A stretch of DNA of 64,000 bases from an uncultured Actinomycetes bacterium (GTDB lineage: Bacteria; Actinomycetota; Acidimicrobiia; Spongiisociales; DATADW01), in the NCBI GenBank assembly GCA_963824995.1, contig CAWGRK010000001.1, positions 139,094 to 203,093 on the forward strand, given 5' to 3'. Below are positions 15,812-55,407 of this stretch, piece by piece. A program made the position numbers and the translations under genes. Within the stretch, counting starts at the first letter, position 1, and the number at the start of each line of letters is the position of its first letter. Below the pieces are notes generated by a model, which did no database searches, was not told the DNA's origin, and saw nothing but the letters and a program-made list of their open reading frames with translations.

Positions 15812-15959
15812 GAGCCCCGGGGCAGACGGCAGACGGCAGACGGCAGACGGAAGAACAGCGAGCACAGTTGGGAGTTCGGCAGCCCCCCTACCCGCTGCTC
15901 CGCAGCGGGGCCCTCCCCCTACGGGGGGACGGAGACGAGGGCGCGAGCGGAGCGAGCGG
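15812..15959. repeat. Composite intergenic element: (GCAGACG)4, GC hairpins and a GGCGCGAGCGGAGCGAG motif
   Basis: Heptamer array at 15822-15849; CCCTCCCCC-TAC-GGGGGGA hairpin near 15911-15929; 17-mer at 15940-15956. Confidence 0.75.
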
Positions 15960-18731: not shown

Positions 18732-18759
18732 GGACGGCGGACGGCGGACGGCGGACGGC
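18732..18759. repeat. Heptamer tandem array (GGACGGC)4 between nuoI and nuoJ
   Basis: Read directly from the sequence. Confidence 0.9.
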
Positions 18760-18771
18760 GGCCAGAGGGGG

Positions 18772-20630: not shown

Positions 20631-20665
20631 CGGACGGCGGACGGCGGACGGCGGACGGCGGACGG
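20631..20665. repeat. Heptamer tandem array (CGGACGG)5 in the nuoH/SPFH divergent gap
   Basis: Five exact copies. Confidence 0.9.
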
Positions 20666-20704
20666 CAAGACAACCGACCCACCTACCACGACACACCCCA
20701 CGTG

Positions 20705-26259: not shown

Positions 26260-27927
26260 TCAGTCGGTCAAGGTGCGCGCCGTGGCGAGGTCGGGGGCGA
26301 TTCCCCACCAGACGTTTGGTCCGTCGCAGGCGACGACGGCGCTGCGGCCGCTGTCCTCTCTTGCTGCTCGCTCCCGCTCACCCTCGGTGTCGGACTCGCT
26401 GGCGTCGGGGAAAGCGGCACGCTCCAGGGCGAGCACGGTGTCGCACAACGGTGCCGAGCCCTCACCGCCGTCGACCATGGTGACGGATACCGCGCTGTCG
26501 TCGCCATCTGTCCAGAGGACTATCTCTCCCCCATCCCACGCCGCGGCCCGCTCCTTGGCATCGGTCAAGGCCGCTTCCCGATCCCCACCCGGCGATCGGG
26601 CGAGCAGGTAGAGGTCGGCGGCACCGAAGGTGGTGCGGCGCTGCTCCTCCCAGGTCCCGCCGGGGCGTCCGCTCCCGGGTGCGGTGCTCGCCTCGTATGC
26701 GGCGAGATAACGCTCGGGGAACATCACCTCGGACGTAGTGAGGGGCGGTTGGTCGTAGGCGGCATCCACCGCTTCCAAACCGCCGTCGGCCATCAAGGCG
26801 CAGGTCAGCCCGAGGCCCTCGTTGTAGGGGAACTGAACCGCATCGCCAAGGTACGGGGGCAGCGATTCGAGGTCCTGCTGGGCACCGAGGACGGACGGGT
26901 CGAGCAGCGAGCCCATCAGAGCCATGGGGTCGAGCGCCCCGCCGGCGTAGCGCTGCATCGCCACCGTGGCGTCTCCCTCGACGAGCGAGAGGGCGGCGAG
27001 TGCCTGGTCGGGGTCGGCGGCATCGTCCTCCACCGCCGCGGGGAAGGAAAGCACCTGGTCGGTGAGCGCGTGCGTCTGCTCGTGGGCGAGCGCGACCTGG
27101 TCGATGGCGGCGAGGGTCTCGCCTTCGCTGCCCGTCCTGACCACCAGCTCGCCGGTATCGGGGTCGTAGAAACCGGCGACGCCGCTCCCCAGCATCTCGG
27201 ACTGTGCCTCGACCAGATCGGTCCCAAGGGGAATGGCACCGAGCGCCGCCAGGATGCGCGCATCCTGATCGGCGACGTCCGCCGGATAGTCCTCGGCGAC
27301 GATGGCGGCGATGCGGTCCTCCATCCCGGCGGAGTCCACGAATGTCGGAGTGACTTCGGAAGTGAACTCCAACTGTCGGATCTGCTCGACCGCATCTGCG
27401 ATCGAGGCCACCTGCGCCTCGAGCGAACTGGCGTCGATCTCGAGCTCCGTCTCGCCACCGAGCAGGCATGACGGGTCGATGCCGCCCTGGCCACCGAGCA
27501 GGCCTTCGAGACCGGAGGTGCCTCCTTCACCGCCGAGCAGGCCCCCGAGCAGATCTTCCATCGACCCGGCGTCGCCACCGAGCAGGCCCCCGAGGAGATC
27601 TTCCAGCGATTCAGCGTCGCCGCCACCGAGCAGGCCCCCGAGAAGATCTTCCAGCGACCCCTCTTCTCCGCCGCCGAGCAGACCGCCCAGGAGATCCTCG
27701 ACCGGTGGCTCCGCTTCCGCCTCGGCGAGGCGGGCCTCCAGGTCGGCGATCTGCGCTTCCTGCTCGGCCACCTGCGCTTCGAGAGCTTCGATCCGCTCTT
27801 CGGCGGCTGTCAGGCTTTGCTGCCTGTCGTAGCCCCAGACGGCGGCGCCTACCAGTGCCAGCACCAGCACGATCGATACCACGATGGCCGATACCGGCCA
27901 CCGCTGATTGCTCGGGGGAGTCGTCAC
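26260..27927 (-). CDS. Membrane-anchored putative zincin metalloprotease with coiled coil and EDLLGGLLGG repeats
   Basis: N-terminal TM; coiled coil; GFYDP; AHEQTHALTDQ (HExxH); LVEGDA; FPYNEG. Confidence 0.75.
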   Translation of the reverse strand: MTTPPSNQRWPVSAIVVSIVLVLALVGAAVWGYDRQQSLTAAEERIEALEAQVAEQEAQIADLEARLAEAEAEPPVEDLLGGLLGGGEEGSLEDLLGGLLGGGDAESLEDLLGGLLGGDAGSMEDLLGGLLGGEGGTSGLEGLLGGQGGIDPSCLLGGETELEIDASSLEAQVASIADAVEQIRQLEFTSEVTPTFVDSAGMEDRIAAIVAEDYPADVADQDARILAALGAIPLGTDLVEAQSEMLGSGVAGFYDPDTGELVVRTGSEGETLAAIDQVALAHEQTHALTDQVLSFPAAVEDDAADPDQALAALSLVEGDATVAMQRYAGGALDPMALMGSLLDPSVLGAQQDLESLPPYLGDAVQFPYNEGLGLTCALMADGGLEAVDAAYDQPPLTTSEVMFPERYLAAYEASTAPGSGRPGGTWEEQRRTTFGAADLYLLARSPGGDREAALTDAKERAAAWDGGEIVLWTDGDDSAVSVTMVDGGEGSAPLCDTVLALERAAFPDASESDTEGERERAAREDSGRSAVVACDGPNVWWGIAPDLATARTLTD

Positions 27928-31040: not shown

Positions 31041-31180
31041 GACGGCGGACGGCAGTCGGCAGACGGCAGACGGCAGGTAGTCATGCATCTTCTCGGACAC
31101 ATACCTGAAGGGGGGTGATGAGAGACCAGTCACCCCTCCTCTCGCTCCGCTCGCGCCACCCCCCACCGGGGGAGGGCTGA
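31041..31180. repeat. Composite element upstream of nuoA: degenerate (GACGGCR)5, CTCGCTCCGCTCGCGCC and a C/G-tract hairpin
   Basis: Array at 31041-31075; the 17-mer at 31141-31157 is the exact reverse complement of 15940-15956. Confidence 0.7.
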
Positions 31181-43704: not shown

Positions 43705-44830
43705 TCGAACGAGATCCAGTCCGACAGATCGTCGAAGAAGATCCCGTCTGACCATGGGTAGGAGAAGTTGAACCCCTGGCCCCGGAAGAGGACTCCGATG
43801 ATGGTGAGGGTGGTCGCCCCGGCGAGGAAGAAGGTGAACATGATGATGGCGAACTTCCGGTCGGATGGCTTGGTGGACGGGTTGCGGTCGAAATAGGGGA
43901 CCGCCATCAGACCGATGAGCCCGAAGGTCGGCACCAGGACCCCGGCCACCTGGGGGTCGAAGTAGGAGAGCAACTCCTGAAGCCCGAGGAAGTACCACGG
44001 CGCCTTCGACGGGTTCGGAGTCTCGTTGAAGTTGGCCGCCTCCAGAAGGGGCGCCTGGAGGACGACCGACATGACGACCAGCAGGCCGGTCATCGCCAGC
44101 AGGCTGGCGAACTCGGCGATCATCAGATGGGGCCAGGTGTTTACCTTGTCGGTCGGCTCGGTCTTGACCTGCTGGATCGCCTTCGCCTTGACAACGGTGA
44201 GCAACCGTTGAGTGCGAACCCCTTCGGGCACTCCGGTCGGCGCCGCCACCGGCCTGGCAGCGACCGCCGCGGCCACCCGCCCAGCACCGGCTGCGGCAAC
44301 GGGGACGGGTTCTTCGTCGTCCGCTCCCCCGTCGGGAGCGCCGGCACCATTGCCCGCAGGGGGAGGCGTGGATGAACCGGCGCCATCGCCGCCGACAACC
44401 GGCTGGGGCTGCTCCGCCGCCGGTGACTCAACCTCCGCCGCCGGCTCGGGCTGCTCTGCCTCCGCCGCCGGTGACTCAACCTCGGCCGCAGGCTCGGGCT
44501 GCTCTGCCTCCGCCGCCGGCTCAGGCTGGTCAGCTTCGGCGACCGCTTCCGGCTGCTCCACTTCGGCGGCGCGCTCAACCTGCTCAGCTTCAGCAGCTGG
44601 CTCCACCTGTTCGGCTTCGGCTGCTGGAGCCTCTTCCGCGGGATCGTCTGCCGTCCGCCGTCCGCCGTCCGCCGTCTCTTCCGGAGTTGCCGTCTCTTCC
44701 TCCGCCGTCTCCTCCTCTGGGGCGTCGCCTCCCCCCGCATCTCGGCGAGCACTTGCTCGACCGGGATGCCAAGCGCTTTCGCCTTGGCCTCGGCCGACCG
44801 GCGGAGCAGGCTCTCGGGAATCTCAGGCAT
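43701..44830 (-). CDS. Cytochrome b6 subunit IV-like (PetD-like) protein with a long acidic N-terminal extension (frameshift near 44720)
   Basis: TWPHL, TPNPSKAPWYFLGLQELL and PYFDRNP; three TMs. Confidence 0.85.
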
Positions 44831-48291: not shown

Positions 48292-49131
48292 CGCCGAACT
48301 CCTCTCCCAAGCCTCGGCAGCGCTCGGTGTCCCCGAGCCCATCGTGCAGCGTTCGGCGGCGGCGAGGGCCACCGCCAACGGCGTGGACGTCGACGAGGTC
48401 CTCCGGGCGTGGGCCGGGGGAGGCGCCGTGGCTGCGGGGACCCCGTCGGAGGCAGCGTCGGAGGGGGCAGAACCGGCAGCGGCGGCTGAGGCTGAGACGG
48501 CTGCGGAAGAGACGGCGGACGGCGGACGGCGGACGGCGGAGGAAGAGGCGGCACCGGAAGAGGCGGCTCAAGCACCGCACCAGCGGCGGCAGCTGTGGCG
48601 GTTCCCGCTGCAGCGTGGCGGTGGCGGCCGCGGTGGTGGAGCGGCCTCGGGTCATTCCGATTCTCGAAGGGTCGCAGGGAGAGCCACTGGAAGCTCATAT
48701 TCGGAGTGGTCGGGTTGCTGACTCTTGGCCTTCTCGGTGGTTGGGTGCTCCCCGCTCTCGACACGCTCGACGACCCCGGAGCGCCGGCCGCCCTCACCGC
48801 AGCCGGGACCGAGGGCCGCCGGATCTATCTGCGCGAGGGTTGCCAGTCGTGTCACACGCAGGTGGTCAGGGCGATCGTGACCGACGCCGGGTTGGGTCCG
48901 GTGTCGAACGCCGGGTCCGTTGCAGGTTTTCCGGGCGACACCATCGGTTCGGTCCGTTACGGGCCTGACCTCACCCACTTCGGGAGCCGTGAGGGAGTGG
49001 ACCTGGCCTCGGTCACGGCCTATCTCCGCAACCCCCGGGCGGCTCGCCCCGAGAGTCTGATGCCGCCGATCGACTACCTGGACGACGCCGAACTCGAAGC
49101 GCTGTCCCAGTTCCTGGTGGAGTCGAAGTGA
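48284..49131 (+). CDS. ccoO: CcoO-like monoheme cytochrome c with an N-terminal helical module and acidic linker (frameshifts near 48560-48680)
   Basis: GRRIYLREGCQSCHTQVVR, GSVRYGPDL and ESLMP. Confidence 0.8.
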
Positions 49132-49153: not shown

Positions 49154-50338
49154 GTGAGCGACGAACAGCTGGCAGCGGCTGCCGCAGCGCTCAACGCCCC
49201 CGAGGCAATTGTCAGGCGCTCCGCCGAGGCGCGGGCCAAGGCCGACGGGATCCCGGTGGAGCAGGTGCTGACGGCGTGGGCTGGTGGGGAGAGCACACCG
49301 AAGACGGAAGACGGAAGTCGGAAGACGGAAGATGAAGCGGCGCCGCCGCCCGCAGCCGAAGAGACGGCAGACGGCGGACGGCAGACGGCAGCCACTGAAC
49401 GCGACGGCAGACGGCGGACGGCAGACGGCAGCAGAACCAGGAGCGGAGGCACCAGGCGCGGTTCCGGCGGTTCCGGCCGTCGCCGCAGCGGCTGTCGCCG
49501 ACATTCCCGACTTGCCGCCGGCACCGGAGACGGTCTCGCCGGCGGCGGCCATGGATTACCCCGAGGTGATCTCGGTCCCCACCGCCGGGATAAAGGAGCG
49601 GACCGGGGGTGGCGTTCCCGGCTGGCTGACCAGCGTGTTCGTGGCCGTCCCGCTCTTCGCTCTCTTCTACCTCATCTCGAACGCGGGCGGAGTCGAGTGC
49701 GGCGAGGGCGGCGCGCTTGCGGTGAGCCCGATCTCGGGTGAACTGGTCAACTGTGATGGAACCCCATACGAAGGATCGGGCGCCGGCGGCGGGGCGGGCG
49801 GTGACTTCCTCGCCGTGGGAGAACAGGTGTACGCCGAGGTCGCCGCCTGTCAGGGATGCCATGGAGACCAGGGACAGGGCGGCGTCGGGCCGCCGCTGTC
49901 GGGGGGGGCGGTGCTCACCACCTTCGGCAGTTGCGAGGACCACGTCACCTGGGTGCGGCTCGGAACCCAGGGTTGGGCAGCCGAGGTCGGGGAAACATAC
50001 GGGGACAGTGGCAAGCCGGTGGGTGGGGGCGGGACCATGCCCGGGTTCTCCACTCTCAGCGACGAGCAACTCCGGGCGGTCACCTACTTCGAGCGGGTCC
50101 GGTTCGGCGGGGCCAATCCCGAGGAGGCGCTGGCGGACTGCGGCCTCGGCGAGCCGGCGGGCGGTGAGGGTGGAGGCGGTGAGGAAACCGGGACCACTGT
50201 GGTCGGGGAAGATGGGAGCGACCGAGACCACCGTGGCCGGGGAAGAGTGGGGCGACCGAGACCACCGTGGCCGGGGAGGGCGGGGCGACCGAGACCACCT
50301 TGGCCGGGGGCGGCGCCGCCACCACCGCGGCGCCATAG
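49154..50338 (+). CDS. Membrane-anchored monoheme cytochrome c with an N-terminal helical module and Thr-rich tail (frameshifts)
   Basis: One TM; CQGCH; TMPGF; tail ...TETTLAGGGAATTAAP*. Confidence 0.8.
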
Positions 50339-51315: not shown

Positions 51316-52212
51316 TTGGAGGTGACCGACCCGGCCCACATCGATCTTGCCCGCCGGCTTGCCGAAGCCGGGGGCGTGGTGATGGTGATGGGGGCGATGG
51401 ACACCGGGAAGTCCACCCTGTCCCGCCTCATCATCTCCGCAGGGCTGGAGCAGGGCAGGTTGGTCGCCTACGTCGACGCCGACGTCGGGCAGAGCACGGT
51501 CGGCCCTCCAACATGCGCCGGATTGAAGTGGTTGCGAGAGCCCTCCGACCTCGACACCATCGATCGCGCCGACGAACTCCAGTTCGTCGGGTCCACCACC
51601 CCCGAGCGCCTCGTCCTCCCCCACGTGGTGGCCACCTCCGCCCTGGTGACGCTGGCCAGGGAGAGCGCCGACCTGATCGTCATCGACACCACAGGGACCG
51701 TCTCGGGGGTCGTCGGCGAGACACTCAAGTACTACAAGACCGAGTTGTGCCGACCCGACAAGGTGGTGGCGCTGCAGCGGGGAACCGAGATGGAGCCGAT
51801 AGTGGGGATGCTCCGCCGGTTCTTTTCATCAGAAGTGATCGTCTCCGGCGTCGATCCCGAGGTGCTCCCGGTCCCCCCCGACCAACGTGCGGCGCAGCGC
51901 ACGGTCCGACTGGCCGACGCATTCGCCCCACCGCTCGAGCGCTGGAGGGTGCGTCCCACGGTGTTCGCCCCCACCCTCCCCGCCGGTCTCGACCTCTCCC
52001 GGCTTCATGGCGTCCTGGTCGGGGTTCAGGACGGGACAGGCCGGTGCCTCGGCCTCGGGGTTCTCGAGTTCTCCGAGGACGTGCTGCGCGTGATCACCAA
52101 TGTCGGCGGTGGGATGCAGGGCCTACGCCTCGGGTCGCTCCGTGTCCATCTCTCCGACTTCACCAGCAAGCAGGTCAATCTGCAGGAGATGATCTCAGGG
52201 CTCGAGGGCTAG
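51316..52212 (+). CDS. Clp1/Nol9-like polynucleotide 5'-kinase
   Basis: GAMDTGKST Walker A; DADVGQSTVGPP; IVIDTTG; R...R lid region. Confidence 0.8.
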   Translation: MEVTDPAHIDLARRLAEAGGVVMVMGAMDTGKSTLSRLIISAGLEQGRLVAYVDADVGQSTVGPPTCAGLKWLREPSDLDTIDRADELQFVGSTTPERLVLPHVVATSALVTLARESADLIVIDTTGTVSGVVGETLKYYKTELCRPDKVVALQRGTEMEPIVGMLRRFFSSEVIVSGVDPEVLPVPPDQRAAQRTVRLADAFAPPLERWRVRPTVFAPTLPAGLDLSRLHGVLVGVQDGTGRCLGLGVLEFSEDVLRVITNVGGGMQGLRLGSLRVHLSDFTSKQVNLQEMISGLEG

Positions 52213-52217
52213 AGGCC

Positions 52218-52396
52218 AGACGGAAGACGGAGGCGGAGGCGGACGGCGGACGGCGGACGGCGGCAAGCCGAGACGGAAGACGGAAGACGGAAGACGGAGA
52301 GAACAGCCGAACGGCAGGCGTCAGACGGCGGACGGCGGACGGCGCTTCCACGAGGTCGCGAGGGGGAGGCTCGGGAGGGGGAGGCTCGGGAGGGGG
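52218..52396. repeat. Compound tandem array: GACGGCG and GAAGACG heptamers followed by about 2.5 copies of GAGGGGGAGGCTCGG
   Basis: Read directly from the sequence. Confidence 0.85.
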
Positions 52397-52496
52397 TGAA
52401 ACCCACCTCCCGTACGATCACCCGAGGAACCTCCCCGGATCGTTCCCCGCACTTCCCCTAACGGGCTGCGGTCCGGTTCAGCACCTCGGGTGTCGC
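52387..52496 (-). ncRNA. Candidate structured small RNA (about 85-nt rod followed by a hairpin)
   Basis: Follows a sigma70-type promoter; nested stems CACCCGAGG/CCTCGGGTG, CCGGA/TCCGG, CCGCA/TGCGG and CCC-GTTA-GGG; no credible ORF downstream. Confidence 0.55.
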
Positions 52497-52502
52497 ACGG
52501 CG

Positions 52503-52531
52503 ACCATACGAAGAGGCCAAAGGAGCGTCAA
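52503..52531 (-). promoter_or_regulatory. Sigma70/SigA-type promoter
   Basis: TTGACG-N17-TATGGT on the minus strand. Confidence 0.7.
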
Positions 52532-52624
52532 GGGGTACGTTGTGGGGTCCAAACCGCCGGTTTCCTCTACGTTGTTGGGCACAAGTGCGGCTAACTGCGA
52601 GCATTTCTGCCAACGACCGAGGGG

Positions 52625-52680
52625 TAATCCACAGATCCACAGGTATCCACAGGGCGTTGTTCACAGCCTGCTGTGGAGAC
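52625..52680. promoter_or_regulatory. Cluster of five DnaA-box-like 9-mers
   Basis: TAATCCACA 52625, AGATCCACA 52633, GTATCCACA 52643, TTGTTCACA 52657 and reverse GTCTCCACA 52672, against consensus TT(A/G)TCCACA. Confidence 0.6.
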
Positions 52681-52684
52681 CTTT

Positions 52685-53161
52685 CTACGGCGAGATTTCG
52701 CGCCCGCCGGACAGCCATGCCGAAAGCATCGGTCGGAAGGACACCTCAATCGTCTCGTAGATCTCACCGAGCAGGAGGTCCAGTTCCTCCGGGGTGACCC
52801 GCTCGAGGGGTAGGCGGCCACGGAGCACTACCGCCCCTTCGCGATCGACCGCGAAGTGGATACGCCACGTTGTGGCGTTGCGGACCAGACACTGGCGGTG
52901 CACCTCGCTGGGATCCGACTCCGGAGCCGGGAGCACATACGCCTCGCAGCGCAAGCTGCGTTGCCCGACCTCCCACCAGACGGTGGTGGCGTCGCGCACC
53001 GTCTGTCGCATCCGCACCGCCCAGCGCAGCATGCCGGGCGCGTCACCAGGGGCTGAGCCGTTGACCTGCTCGACGTGGACCACGTCAGACTCGGGATCCT
53101 CGAGCCAGCGGCCGAATGCCGCTTCGAGAGTGGCGACTACCTCAGGCTGTGATCCCGGCAT
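52685..53161 (-). CDS. YbjN-domain protein
   Basis: LRCEAYVLPAP...VHRQCLVRN and LDLLLGEIY; follows mshA as in other actinobacteria. Confidence 0.75.
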   Translation of the reverse strand: MPGSQPEVVATLEAAFGRWLEDPESDVVHVEQVNGSAPGDAPGMLRWAVRMRQTVRDATTVWWEVGQRSLRCEAYVLPAPESDPSEVHRQCLVRNATTWRIHFAVDREGAVVLRGRLPLERVTPEELDLLLGEIYETIEVSFRPMLSAWLSGGREISP

Positions 53162-54359
53162 ACAGCTCGAGAAGTCGCTGTGCAGTCGCCTCCCAGGAGA
53201 ACCGCTGGGACACCTCGACCGCACCCTTGGAGAGCCGGCTGGCCAGTTCGTGGTCGGTGAGCAACTCGACGACGTGCTCTGCGTACTGGTCGGGGTCCCA
53301 GCCCCCGACGAGATAACCGGACTCGCCGTCCTCGACGGCATAAGCGAGACCGCCGGCGCCGGAGGCGACCACCGGTATCCCACAAGCCTGCGCCTCGGCC
53401 GCCACCAGACCGAATGTCTCGCTGCGCGACGGGAAAAGGAGAACATCGGCGGCCTGGTAAACGGCGGCGAGGTCGTGGTGCGGCACTGGCTCCCACCACT
53501 CGACCACATCGTCCAAGCCGAGATCGGCCACCCTCTTCTGCAGCCGTCCCACCTCGGTGGCGCCCTCCTCGCCGCTCGGGCCGCCGACGACGAGCATCCG
53601 CGCATTGGGTACCGCCCGGCGAACCCGGTCGAAAGCGTCGATGGCCACGTCGAGTCCCTTGAGCGGTTGGATGCGACCGACGAAGAGGACCGTCGGCTGG
53701 TCGGGCAGACCGAGACGCTGCCTGGCGGCGGTCCGGTCACCTGGACAGAAGCGGTCGTGGTCGATACCAGGTGGGGATGTGCAAAGCCGTCCCGGGTCGG
53801 CGCCGTAGTGGAGCATCAGGTCCTCCGCCTCGAACGGGGTGGAGGCGATGACGCAATCGGACAGAGCGATGACCTCGTGCTCGGCGGCGATGCGGAGGAG
53901 GCTCTCTGGCGGCTGGTCTGCTCGCCTGGCCGCATCCTTGACCCGCCCGAGAGTGTGGAACGAGTTGGCCAGCGGGATGTCGAGCTCGCGCTTCACGAGG
54001 ATGCCGGCCCAGCCGGAAAGCCAGTAGTGCGAGTGGACCAGGTCGTAGCTCACCCCGGCGGCCTCCGCCCAGGAGACCGCGGCCGCAGCGAACTCGCCCA
54101 CCAGCCCGGACTGGTCGGCGGTGGACAGCGGCTCGGCGGGACCGGCGTCGATGTGGATCACCCGATATCCGGAGTCGGTCTCGACGACCGCGGGCACCGC
54201 CGGATCGGTGCGCCTGGTGAACACGTCCACCCCGACGCCTCTCCCGACCATGGTTGCCGAAAGCTCGTCGATGTAGACGTTCATCCCGCCGGCGTCGCCG
54301 CGACCGGGGACGAGCAGCGGCGAGGTGTGCATCGACATGTAGGCGACGCGTTCGATCAT
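53142..54359 (-). CDS. mshA: D-inositol-3-phosphate glycosyltransferase (mycothiol synthesis)
   Basis: HTSPL..PG.GDAGGMNVY, HSHYWLSG, FVGRIQPLKG and SETFGLVAAEAQACG. Confidence 0.88.
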   Translation of the reverse strand: MIERVAYMSMHTSPLLVPGRGDAGGMNVYIDELSATMVGRGVGVDVFTRRTDPAVPAVVETDSGYRVIHIDAGPAEPLSTADQSGLVGEFAAAAVSWAEAAGVSYDLVHSHYWLSGWAGILVKRELDIPLANSFHTLGRVKDAARRADQPPESLLRIAAEHEVIALSDCVIASTPFEAEDLMLHYGADPGRLCTSPPGIDHDRFCPGDRTAARQRLGLPDQPTVLFVGRIQPLKGLDVAIDAFDRVRRAVPNARMLVVGGPSGEEGATEVGRLQKRVADLGLDDVVEWWEPVPHHDLAAVYQAADVLLFPSRSETFGLVAAEAQACGIPVVASGAGGLAYAVEDGESGYLVGGWDPDQYAEHVVELLTDHELASRLSKGAVEVSQRFSWEATAQRLLELYAGITA

Positions 54360-55276
54360 CGGGTCGCACGCAGTTCATAGAGAGGACGGGGCTCGGCTCC
54401 CAGCCGGAACTTGTACGCCTCATTCCCCTTGAGGAAGTCGAACACCGACTTGCCGTCCTCGATCGCTCGGTGGACGAGACACCACAACAGCATCACCCCA
54501 GGTGAGGCAGCAGCATCGTCGGGCTCGTACGCCGAGTTGTACAGGTAGTAAGCGTCGTCGTCCTCGAAGGAGAAGGCGGCCGCCACCGGCCGATCGGTGG
54601 CGCTGAGAAGGTCCACCTGGAAACCGGCATCGGCCAGATCTCCGAAGAACTCTGTCATCGAGTCGTCCAGAAAACTGCCCTTGGCCCCCGCAGCGCGTCG
54701 GTGAAGCTCTACGAACGAGTCAAACCACGGGCCCCTGCCGCGGTGGCTCTCCAGAGTCGCCGGGCCGAACGCCGCTTCGAACCTCCGCACCTTGCGCCGC
54801 AACTCGTGTCGCTCCTTCTTCCCCAGTTGCCCCAGCCAGGTGTCGGGGTCGCCAGGCAGCGAGAGCACCGCAGCGACGGTGTGCATGGCTGGCTCCGAAT
54901 CCATCCCCACCTCGGCCATGGCCTTGGAGAGGGGGGCGGCAGCCTCCTCGGGCAGCGAGTCGAACACAGCCTCTGTCCCGGGGTGCAGCTCGTCTAGCGC
55001 CGCCGCCATTGCCGTGGTGACAGCCGTCTGCTCGCCCAGTGGACTGCGGTAATCGACCAGGTCAGGATGACCGACGAAGCTCACCAAGGACCGTCCCTCA
55101 TCGAAGCGGAGTGGGATCAGCGCATCTTCAACCTGGACCGGCATGGCGACGTCGCTGGACTGGCGTCTCCGCCACACGGCTTCGATGAAAGGTCGGTGAG
55201 GAAAGGGGCCCACGTGGCCGGCTATGGGAGGCAGGGAGAAGCCGGGACAGTCCCAGGGTGTTGTCTCGTCCTTCAT
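54356..55276 (-). CDS. GNAT acetyltransferase (CelD/BcsL-like)
   Basis: KERHELRRKVRR, YLYNSAY, SPGVML and FDFLKGNEAYKFRLG. Confidence 0.85.
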   Translation of the reverse strand: MKDETTPWDCPGFSLPPIAGHVGPFPHRPFIEAVWRRRQSSDVAMPVQVEDALIPLRFDEGRSLVSFVGHPDLVDYRSPLGEQTAVTTAMAAALDELHPGTEAVFDSLPEEAAAPLSKAMAEVGMDSEPAMHTVAAVLSLPGDPDTWLGQLGKKERHELRRKVRRFEAAFGPATLESHRGRGPWFDSFVELHRRAAGAKGSFLDDSMTEFFGDLADAGFQVDLLSATDRPVAAAFSFEDDDAYYLYNSAYEPDDAAASPGVMLLWCLVHRAIEDGKSVFDFLKGNEAYKFRLGAEPRPLYELRATR

Positions 55277-55407
55277 CGGTTGACCCTCGCTCGGCGGTTG
55301 GACGGAGACCCCCACCGCTCACGCTAGAGCGAAGCCCGTCACTAGCGGAAAACCGCTGTTCAAGCCAGGCAAACTCGGAACCGGCCTGGAGCATTCCCGG
55401 CCGAGGC

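Follow-up and report, generated by a model that had tools for sequence, protein, structure and literature searches.

The window analysed here, a 64,000-nt stretch of the genome of an uncultured member of the Acidimicrobiia, carries on its minus strand a small rod-shaped RNA of about 85 nt (52412..52498) that has a promoter of its own, occurs once in the genome and ends in a 10-nt apical loop conserved across the class. Being single-copy and conserved together with its promoter across the class, the feature lies far beyond chance, and we put the probability that it is an independent, conserved small RNA (sRNA) gene at about 0.9. The source genome (G000) is a 2.9-Mb assembly that is 85% complete; class membership of this and all other genomes follows the record labels.

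The argument for an independent transcription unit comes mainly from the promoter, whose position is conserved across families. On the minus strand, a -35 hexamer TTGACG (52526..52531) and a -10 hexamer TATGGT (52503..52508) are separated by 17 nt, and this is the sole sigma-70-like site in 52000-53000, where shuffled sequences gave a mean of 0.0. The original prediction had read the same site (52531..52503) as an orphan promoter that drives a self-contained structured RNA from a start near G52496, and the comparison with relatives bears this out. Promoter geometry places the start at 52494..52498 on that strand, with G52496, 7 nt past the -10 box, as the first base of the rod. A TTGnnn-N16-19-TAnnnT site lies upstream at a fixed distance in 69 of the 76 distinct homologues, 35 of them with TTGAC, and 7 homologues lack such a site; the -10 box is embedded in a family-wide cGTAnnnTCG. 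All homologues extracted by BLAST at the level of the order have a TTGAC-type box and a cGTAnnnT box at equal distance. From the end of the -10 box to the CCRAGG core of the rod there are 13-17 nt in 57 of the 76 homologues and 37-42 nt in nine, those with an extra 5′ hairpin. This hairpin stands between the -10 box and the basal helix P1 (L061, L064, L076, L121, L176, L180 and L181); the seven loops read are GAGA, GAAA or GCGA in four cases and GACG in three, and the hairpin might dock on the rod.

Contigs from RNA libraries give a weak hint of transcription. An index search found two rhizosphere metatranscriptome runs, both from one study, with contigs 95-99% like the window, which come from relatives. 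These contigs cover 52413-52595 and 52413-52494 at a depth of about 2, and DNA carry-over is possible; one of 151 nt stops at 52494, 2 bases off the predicted start, contig ends being no proof of RNA ends, and at its 3′ side runs into a relative's GC-rich hairpin. Within 52100-52900 only 52311-52344 and 52413-52595 are covered, and the bare flanks are uninformative.

Folding of 52500-52387 gave a minimum free energy (MFE) of -70.8 kcal/mol (z -5.45), which none of 200 shuffles equalled; for the rod alone (52496-52405) it was -48.0 kcal/mol (z -3.91). The rod of about 85 nt (about 85-92 nt, depending on how its size is given), its three GGGGA motifs and a second hairpin with a UUUCA loop, at 52412-52387 in the MFE fold, are all present as predicted. 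So are, in that fold, the 7x7 bubble and the two inner stems CCGGA/UCCGG and CCGCA/UGCGG that had been described, but the family reads this part of the rod differently.

For the family structure we used an alignment of 20 homologues (A1), from which the covariance model R1 was built, and one of 77 sequences aligned to R1 (A2); both include one row from an unpublished genome (L021, G021), on which no count hangs alone. RNAalifold on A1 returned a long covarying P1 and a tip helix that differs from the single-sequence fold. Mapped by hand on A2, the fold runs from P1 (15 pairs) through a U.U mismatch, P1b (G.U, C-G, Y-G) and facing GA/GA to P2 (6 pairs), a junction, P3 (CCYCGU/GCGGGG) and the 10-nt loop. 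In the window, where all strands are on the minus strand, GCGACACCCGAGG (52484..52496) pairs with CCUCGGGUGAUCGU (52414..52427) to form P1, as both family covariation and the window fold have it; the GCU of P1b and the GA after it (52478..52482) face GA and GGU at 52429-52433; CCGGA of P2 (52472..52476) pairs with UCCGG at 52435-52439; and CCCGU of P3 (52461..52465) pairs with GCGGG at 52446-52450, closing the apical loop UAGGGGAAGU (52451..52460). The conserved tip is this CCCGU/GCGGG helix with a 10-nt loop of UUAGGGGAAGU-type sequence. The predicted bubble is thereby replaced, family-wide, by the three further pairs of GCU/GGU and the facing GA/GA, which may form tandem sheared G.A pairs, and the internal loops are about 2x2 and, at their largest, about 6x6. 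Of the inner stems, CCGGA/UCCGG stands as P2, but CCGCA/UGCGG and CCC/GGG are unconserved and give way to P3. As the P3-enforced fold of the window sequence has -47.7 kcal/mol against -48.0 for the MFE fold, only 0.3 apart, the CCGCA/UGCGG alternative is iso-energetic in this sequence, yet it is not the conserved stem.

Covariation among the homologues supports this fold. In A2, 84.5% of 2115 cells are paired, against 37-50% when the 3′ partners are slid by 1-3 columns; 18 of the 30 pairs change on both sides, and there are 197 compensated cells compared with 92.5 in shuffles, none of 500 shuffles reaching 197. Aligned to R1, A2 is biased to structure, a bias limited by the slid controls and by an independent check of the helix adjoining the loop: in 67 distinct sequences, model-negative rods among them, this helix is 82.6% paired in register and 44-59% once it is shifted. 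Column pair 24:125 of P1 is GC in 40 sequences and AU in 35, while the top of P1, CCCRAGG/CCUYGGG, is almost invariant within the order; P2 has changes on both sides in all six columns, in 3 to 19 sequences each; and in P3, GCGGAG is matched by CUCCGU in five sequences. P1b keeps its G.U in 75 of 76 sequences, its C-G in 72 and its Y-G in 52. Because the G.U pairs of P1b (75/76) and at the closing pair of P3 (72/74) would be A.C on the opposite strand, they fix the transcribed strand. A small peptide was set aside as the product: the sole open reading frames (ORFs) are of 43-86 aa, and the indels of the family alignment do not keep to lengths divisible by three.

The apical loop, consensus UYGGGGAAGU, is the most conserved feature of the RNA. 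GGGGAAGUGCGG is invariant in all 20 sequences of A1, and within the order it belongs to about 30 invariant positions, together with CCC-A-GUGC, GGUUC and GGG. Across 67 distinct sequences, the loop reads UC-GGGGAAG-U in 45 and its final U is kept in 66. Beyond the reach of R1, we surveyed the regions downstream of ybjN in 28 R1-negative class genomes of 16 families, 27 of them full-length and the 28th incomplete: a GC-rich rod with a GGGGAAG apical loop is present in 18 of the 27, three more have one-letter variants (GGGGGAG twice, GGGAAGG once), and six contain nothing convincing. These rods, which occupy the syntenic ybjN-proC spacer, are without the AAGGUGC/GGUUCC top of P1. Outside the class, 21 regions downstream of ybjN, all from the same phylum, had no GGGGAAG motif. 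Judged from these sequences, the tip alone survives class-wide, and the loop is the core of the family.

The distribution is that of a single-copy gene. By BLAST, the 161-nt element is single in the source genome, where all remaining matches are of 14-34 nt, and it is present in 22 of 41 related genomes (the source genome included) from 10 of the 12 families of the order. R1 likewise finds one copy in the source genome, the window copy, at 78.7 bits (R1 was built with it), and exactly one match each in 63 of 151 class genomes; among class genomes at least 90% complete the tally is 62 of 150, in 44 of 94 genera. With more than 40 genomes the filters were stricter, and such searches under-count. 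A phylum-wide sample gave 6 positives in 151, five of them from the class (the source genome included), and about 140 genomes of other classes gave a single match (G187, E 9e-4). A pattern scan of 185,579 species genomes returned at least 120 loci, and R1 confirms 38 of the first 100; among 31 confirmed loci with labels, 20 are labelled Acidimicrobiia, Acidimicrobiaceae or Ca. Spongiisociaceae, the last being a family of Acidimicrobiia, and 11 have broader or doubtful labels of metagenome-assembled genomes. Since the sampled genomes are related, these genome counts are not independent. A dispersed REP-type repeat, the explanation that the original prediction had set against its own, would come in many copies per genome; there is one, by BLAST and by covariance model.

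In another class of the phylum, two loci (L199, G491:C18:127242-127299; L200, G187:C4:34471-34528) have a rod of about 60 nt whose base, CCAAGGUGCC...GGUUCCUUGG, is as in the top of the family's P1 and whose tip is different. This tip hairpin covaries (AUGC-GAAA-GCAU and GCGC-CCGA-GCGC), a TTGACA-N16-TAAGAT promoter of its own lies about 55 nt upstream, and a U-run stands right after P1; the rod may represent a sister RNA family.

No Rfam 15 family matched the 64-kb window at its gathering score, which supports the alternative of a novel sRNA, and the sixteen loci of a second subtype also gave no match. A permissive scan of the locus returned only noise, most notably the mraW motif (RF01746) at 18.9 bits on the opposite strand, and the listings and abstracts of the literature searched held no description of the family. 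The RNA is therefore a family outside Rfam 15, within a known kind, the small RNAs, and the window copy has what marks the family: its own promoter, a rod closed by its ends, and a UYGGGGAAGU loop with a covarying closing helix.

By analogy, it would work most like the loop-presenting sRNAs, such as 6C, of Actinobacteria that lack Hfq, or like small protein-binding rods of the signal recognition particle (SRP), Y or Csr type. With 6C RNA (RF01066) it shares small size, a single copy, its own promoter and homopurine- or homopyrimidine-rich loops on GC-rich stems, but 6C has two hairpins with C-rich loops where this RNA is one long rod with a G-rich loop, and 6C belongs to Actinomycetes whereas the family described here is found in Acidimicrobiia. 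The best 6C match in the source genome scores 24 bits against a cut-off of 47 and lies off the locus, with none in the window; 6C RNA as a partner was dropped, none having been found in this genome. The small SRP RNA (4.5S, RF00169) is also a single-copy rod of about 100 nt, closed by its own ends and with a conserved apical region. RF00169 nevertheless gives nothing at the locus, and the domain IV GGAA-tetraloop/AGCA pattern is absent from the rod, as had been predicted; the true SRP RNA of the genome lies on contig C16:36293-36392 (61.1 bits, cut-off 40 bits) and has it.

The original prediction had offered, as one of its two readings, an RNA that binds RNA polymerase in the manner of 6S or Ms1. 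The likeness lies in a rod with its 5′ and 3′ ends paired, a strong promoter of house-keeping type, a single copy and presumed action in trans, and RF00013 finds no 6S RNA in this 85%-complete genome (best match 11.7 bits on contig C10, away from the locus, cut-off 46.4 bits); that silence says little, as the model detected 6S in only 7 of 14 control genomes. 6S RNA measures roughly 160-200 nt and Ms1 about 300 nt, and 6S is a rod whose large central bubble imitates an open promoter. The RNA described here, at 85-92 nt, is half that size or less, as the prediction had itself remarked; its largest internal loops are about 6x6 nt, far from an open-promoter-sized bubble; it has neither a 6S model score nor any other Rfam match at gathering score; and its most conserved feature is a hairpin loop instead of a central bubble. 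We regard the polymerase-binding reading as the least probable of those considered, and the comparison does not support it.

At its 3′ side, the rod is followed in the source genome by the second GC-rich hairpin, CGGGAGGUGGG-UUUCA-CCCCCUCCCG (52387..52412, minus strand), which has no U-tail; relatives at genus level have similar hairpins 3′ of the rod, as do the RNA-library contigs of relatives, and the hairpin is likely the terminator, although a terminator scan of the locus found no canonical U-tailed one. In lower-GC members of the class (for example L103, L045 and L035) a U-run stands directly 3′ of P1, so that the rod itself can be a terminator and the transcript essentially the rod. This raises the question of whether the element acts in cis, as a terminator or insulator of the mshA-ybjN operon or as a leader or attenuator of proC. 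Synteny speaks for it: in Pfam scans of 132 ORFs from 49 loci, most loci have GNAT, MshA-like GT4 and YbjN genes upstream of the RNA in its own orientation, some having RsiG-like or other genes instead, and proC is directly downstream on the same strand in several second-subtype loci and in most of the R1-negative ybjN-downstream regions read. In most of the class proC follows the RNA, whose usual place is the spacer behind mshA-ybjN. In the window's order, however, proC has moved away and a convergent CLP1_P gene lies downstream, while by BLAST 10 of 12 families still have the RNA with its promoter; in the source genome proC is on contig C10, right after a uridine-kinase-like ORF (read from its translation), with no rod upstream. 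Where proC does follow, 60-130 nt past the rod, it is preceded by a TAnnnT box, often (G)TTACCCT or TAGCNT, 7-10 nt before its ATG or GTG (L071, L171, L179, L176, L180, L181, L044, L095 and others), which is probably the promoter of a leaderless mRNA. With this -10 box of its own beside the start codon, and unlinked in the source genome, proC does not have the RNA as a leader, and this candidate was rejected. A promoter that belongs to the RNA and keeps its distance in 69 of 76 homologues, a start at the foot of P1 that leaves no room for an anti-terminator, and a 10-nt loop held invariant across the class, which a mere terminator would not require, make a role in cis very improbable.

A stand-alone ligand sensor or self-folded RNA, its pocket formed by the internal loops and the tip, appears improbable to a slightly greater degree. 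Many nucleotides in and between the helices are invariant, among them GA/GA, U.U and GUGCGG, and the GAGA, GAAA or GCGA loops of four of the seven extra 5′ hairpins could dock. The conserved internal-loop sequences are not class-wide, though, and the fold is a plain rod with no multi-helix junction; no riboswitch model matches; and the window's order offers neither an expression platform nor a regulated downstream gene, the gene downstream being convergent here, unlike that of a riboswitch or 5′ leader.

We propose instead that a sigma-A-type promoter would start transcription at the foot of the rod of about 85 nt, making the rod the conserved transcript, which would be followed by the second GC-rich hairpin in the source genome and directly by a U-run in lower-GC relatives. 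The rod would then serve as a stable pedestal that presents the invariant loop in trans to a conserved cellular partner, possibly a protein, with the RNA as part of a ribonucleoprotein (RNP) or as a decoy. Action in trans through the loop we hold to be probable, though well short of the confidence that we attach to the gene itself; a protein as the partner is a tentative proposal, though the one most favoured among the mechanisms considered. Three features favour it: within the order some 30 further helix nucleotides are frozen (CCCRAGGUGC/GGUUCCUYGGG, the U.U and the facing GA/GA), the word ARGUGC occurs twice, also in the variant from outside the class, and some relatives add the 5′ hairpin, with a GNRA-type loop in four of the seven read. 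Taken together, frozen helices, ARGUGC and 5′ hairpins suggest a folded recognition surface more than a bare antisense seed. The P1 top that recurs in the second class beneath a different tip is a further hint of such a surface.

The competing account of the loop is an antisense kissing-loop regulator, in which GGGGAAGU seeds pairing with C/U-rich ACUUCCCC sites of mRNAs or some other RNA and the rod stabilises and displays it, in the way of the loop-borne seeds of Hfq-less Actinobacteria. A single-stranded 10-nt loop that is invariant above helices that vary or covary is most simply read in this way; the loop is the sole part common to all class members, and no downstream gene is constantly linked to the RNA. 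The target side is less encouraging. The complementary 8-mer ACTTCCCC occurs 114 times in the source genome, barely above the 87 of the control, and of these occurrences only 24 lie between genes or close to a 5′ end, with no common context, theme or extended pairing. The rRNA operon, SRP RNA, tmRNA and the RNase P RNA of two relatives hold no complement; among 46 tRNAs, the full 7-mer CUUCCCC is found only in tRNA-Gln, near chance, and three others have CUUCCC. A G-rich seed would also be promiscuous in a genome of about 68% GC, and the roughly 30 extra positions invariant within the order are superfluous for a seed. This screen, which covered one genome with crude gene calls, is a weak negative and too shallow to decide; we consider antisense pairing possible but not likely, and slightly favour the protein partner over it.

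Several observations weigh against a protein partner and the scheme built on it. Neither the neighbouring proteins nor candidate RNA-binding proteins track the RNA, and no partner turned up. YbjN orthologues are present in 114 of 150 class genomes, including the R1-negative families f13 (9/9) and f18 (19/19), and were not found in 12 or more RNA-bearing genomes; an RNP with the neighbouring YbjN was rejected on this lack of co-occurrence. The frozen top of P1 is not class-wide, families f13, f18 and f4 using other sequences, so that a class-wide protein would have to recognise the loop above all, and an antisense seed explains this equally well. Evidence on transcription, finally, comes from contigs and not from raw reads that would show RNA ends and abundance, and the source genome is 85% complete.

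CsrA was a natural candidate, as the RNA resembles sponges of the CsrB/RsmY type in the GGA motifs of its hairpin loop and a second GGGGA about 10 nt away, but it has only one or two sites where those have many. CsrA is usually thought rare in Actinomycetota. Within the Acidimicrobiia it is patchy, PF02599 being found in only 16 of 61 class genomes, for example in all four of family f15. A sponge for CsrA was rejected: PF02599 was not found in G000 or in eight further carriers of the RNA within the order (G009, G014, G017, G018, G079, G025, G034 and G088).

The mraW motif (RF01746) drew attention for another reason: read as its reverse complement, the RNA looks like the mraW hairpin, and the loop consensus of that hairpin, ACUUCCCC, complements GGGGAAGU exactly. 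The resemblance reaches 18.9 bits against a cut-off of 50, lies on the non-transcribed strand, and has ybjN and CLP1_P as neighbours instead of mraW; a table in the motif's source paper lists it for Actinomycetales (PMC2864571). Kissing with an mraW leader, whose loop would be an exact complement, was rejected as RF01746 is not found in the source genome (best 15.9 bits). Mimicry of 16S helix 45, compared with the genome's own 16S 3′ end, failed too: helix 45 is where the 27-nt tip finds its best local match in the rRNA operon, but 356 of 500 shuffles equal its score of 11, and alignment of the entire RNA is no better than that of shuffles (78/200). Three ACTTCCCC...GGGGAAGT inverted pairs on contig C6 were discarded as copies of an unrelated repeat. 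Its copies (L187-L189; 53350-53396, 350492-350539 and 493807-493853), one of them inverted, extend over at least about 170 nt and hold ACTTCCCC-N31-GGGGAAGT; the repeat is probably a mobile-element end or a repeated gene, unrelated to the sRNA.

A single copy, a fixed strong promoter, covariation and a class-frozen loop are together what characterises the small number of bacterial RNAs with house-keeping or global roles. In its boldest form, the proposal is a class-wide house-keeping RNP or regulatory switch of the Acidimicrobiia in which a conserved protein reads the G-rich decaloop; we think this doubtful, but if true it would be a new functional class of RNA, equal in rank to the 6S, Y or CsrB RNAs, and more than a further antisense sRNA. 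A protein partner would make the RNA part of a new RNP; were the partner an RNA, the family, with its G-rich seed, would be the counterpart of sRNAs with C-rich loops in other Actinobacteria. The RNA biology of Acidimicrobiia is little known, abundant though the class is in soils, oceans, sponges and wastewater; one loop and one gene offer a concrete entry point, with a covariance model ready for genome annotation.

Around the RNA, the same-strand upstream neighbour is the YbjN-family gene (52685..53149, minus strand), preceded by an MshA-like GT4 glycosyltransferase gene (53142-54359; TIGR03449 at 423.6 bits, slightly below the cut-off of 462.5) and, on the RNA's strand, a GNAT gene (54356-55315). 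Downstream lies the convergent CLP1_P P-loop protein gene (51316..52212, plus strand; PF16575, E 4.9e-27), and beyond it a SAM_HAT gene. The earlier statement that no credible coding sequence follows the RNA on the minus strand stands: 3′ of it there are only ORFs of 43-70 aa inside tandem repeats.

The RNase P RNA model (RF00010) finds nothing in the source genome, most likely because the 85%-complete assembly has a gap there; 19 of the 21 genomes of the search among relatives have one (18 above the cut-off), a tally in which the source genome is one of the two misses and which includes an unpublished genome (G010) on which no claim rests alone.

The spacer between the RNA and the convergent gene consists only of repeats. 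A 15-nt unit, which reads GAGGCTCGGGAGGGG on the plus strand, makes 3.1 tandem copies at 52352..52396 and overlaps the 3′ arm of the second hairpin; the first unit is that 3′ arm, and each of the three copies is a possible pairing partner for the 5′ arm. Heptamer tandem repeats of the AGACGGA/GACGGCG type (52218..52344) fill the rest, up to the convergent gene. Arrays of such heptamers (GACGGCN, GGACGGC or AGACGGA type, 3-12 copies) occur in at least 10 places of the window, among them 15821-15854, 18732-18761, 20631-20666, 31041-31076, 44645-44676, 48511-48540, 49300-49431 and, in the spacer after the sRNA, 52218-52344; they look like a genome-wide class of micro-repeats, and relatives have other heptamer or hexamer arrays 3′ of their RNA copy (AGTCGCG, CAGCTAT, CCGTTG). 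Longer tandem repeats lie at 27528-27696 (period 48), 44399-44627 (48/27/21) and 50187-50309 (34 nt), the last adjoining the SAM_HAT gene on its upstream side.

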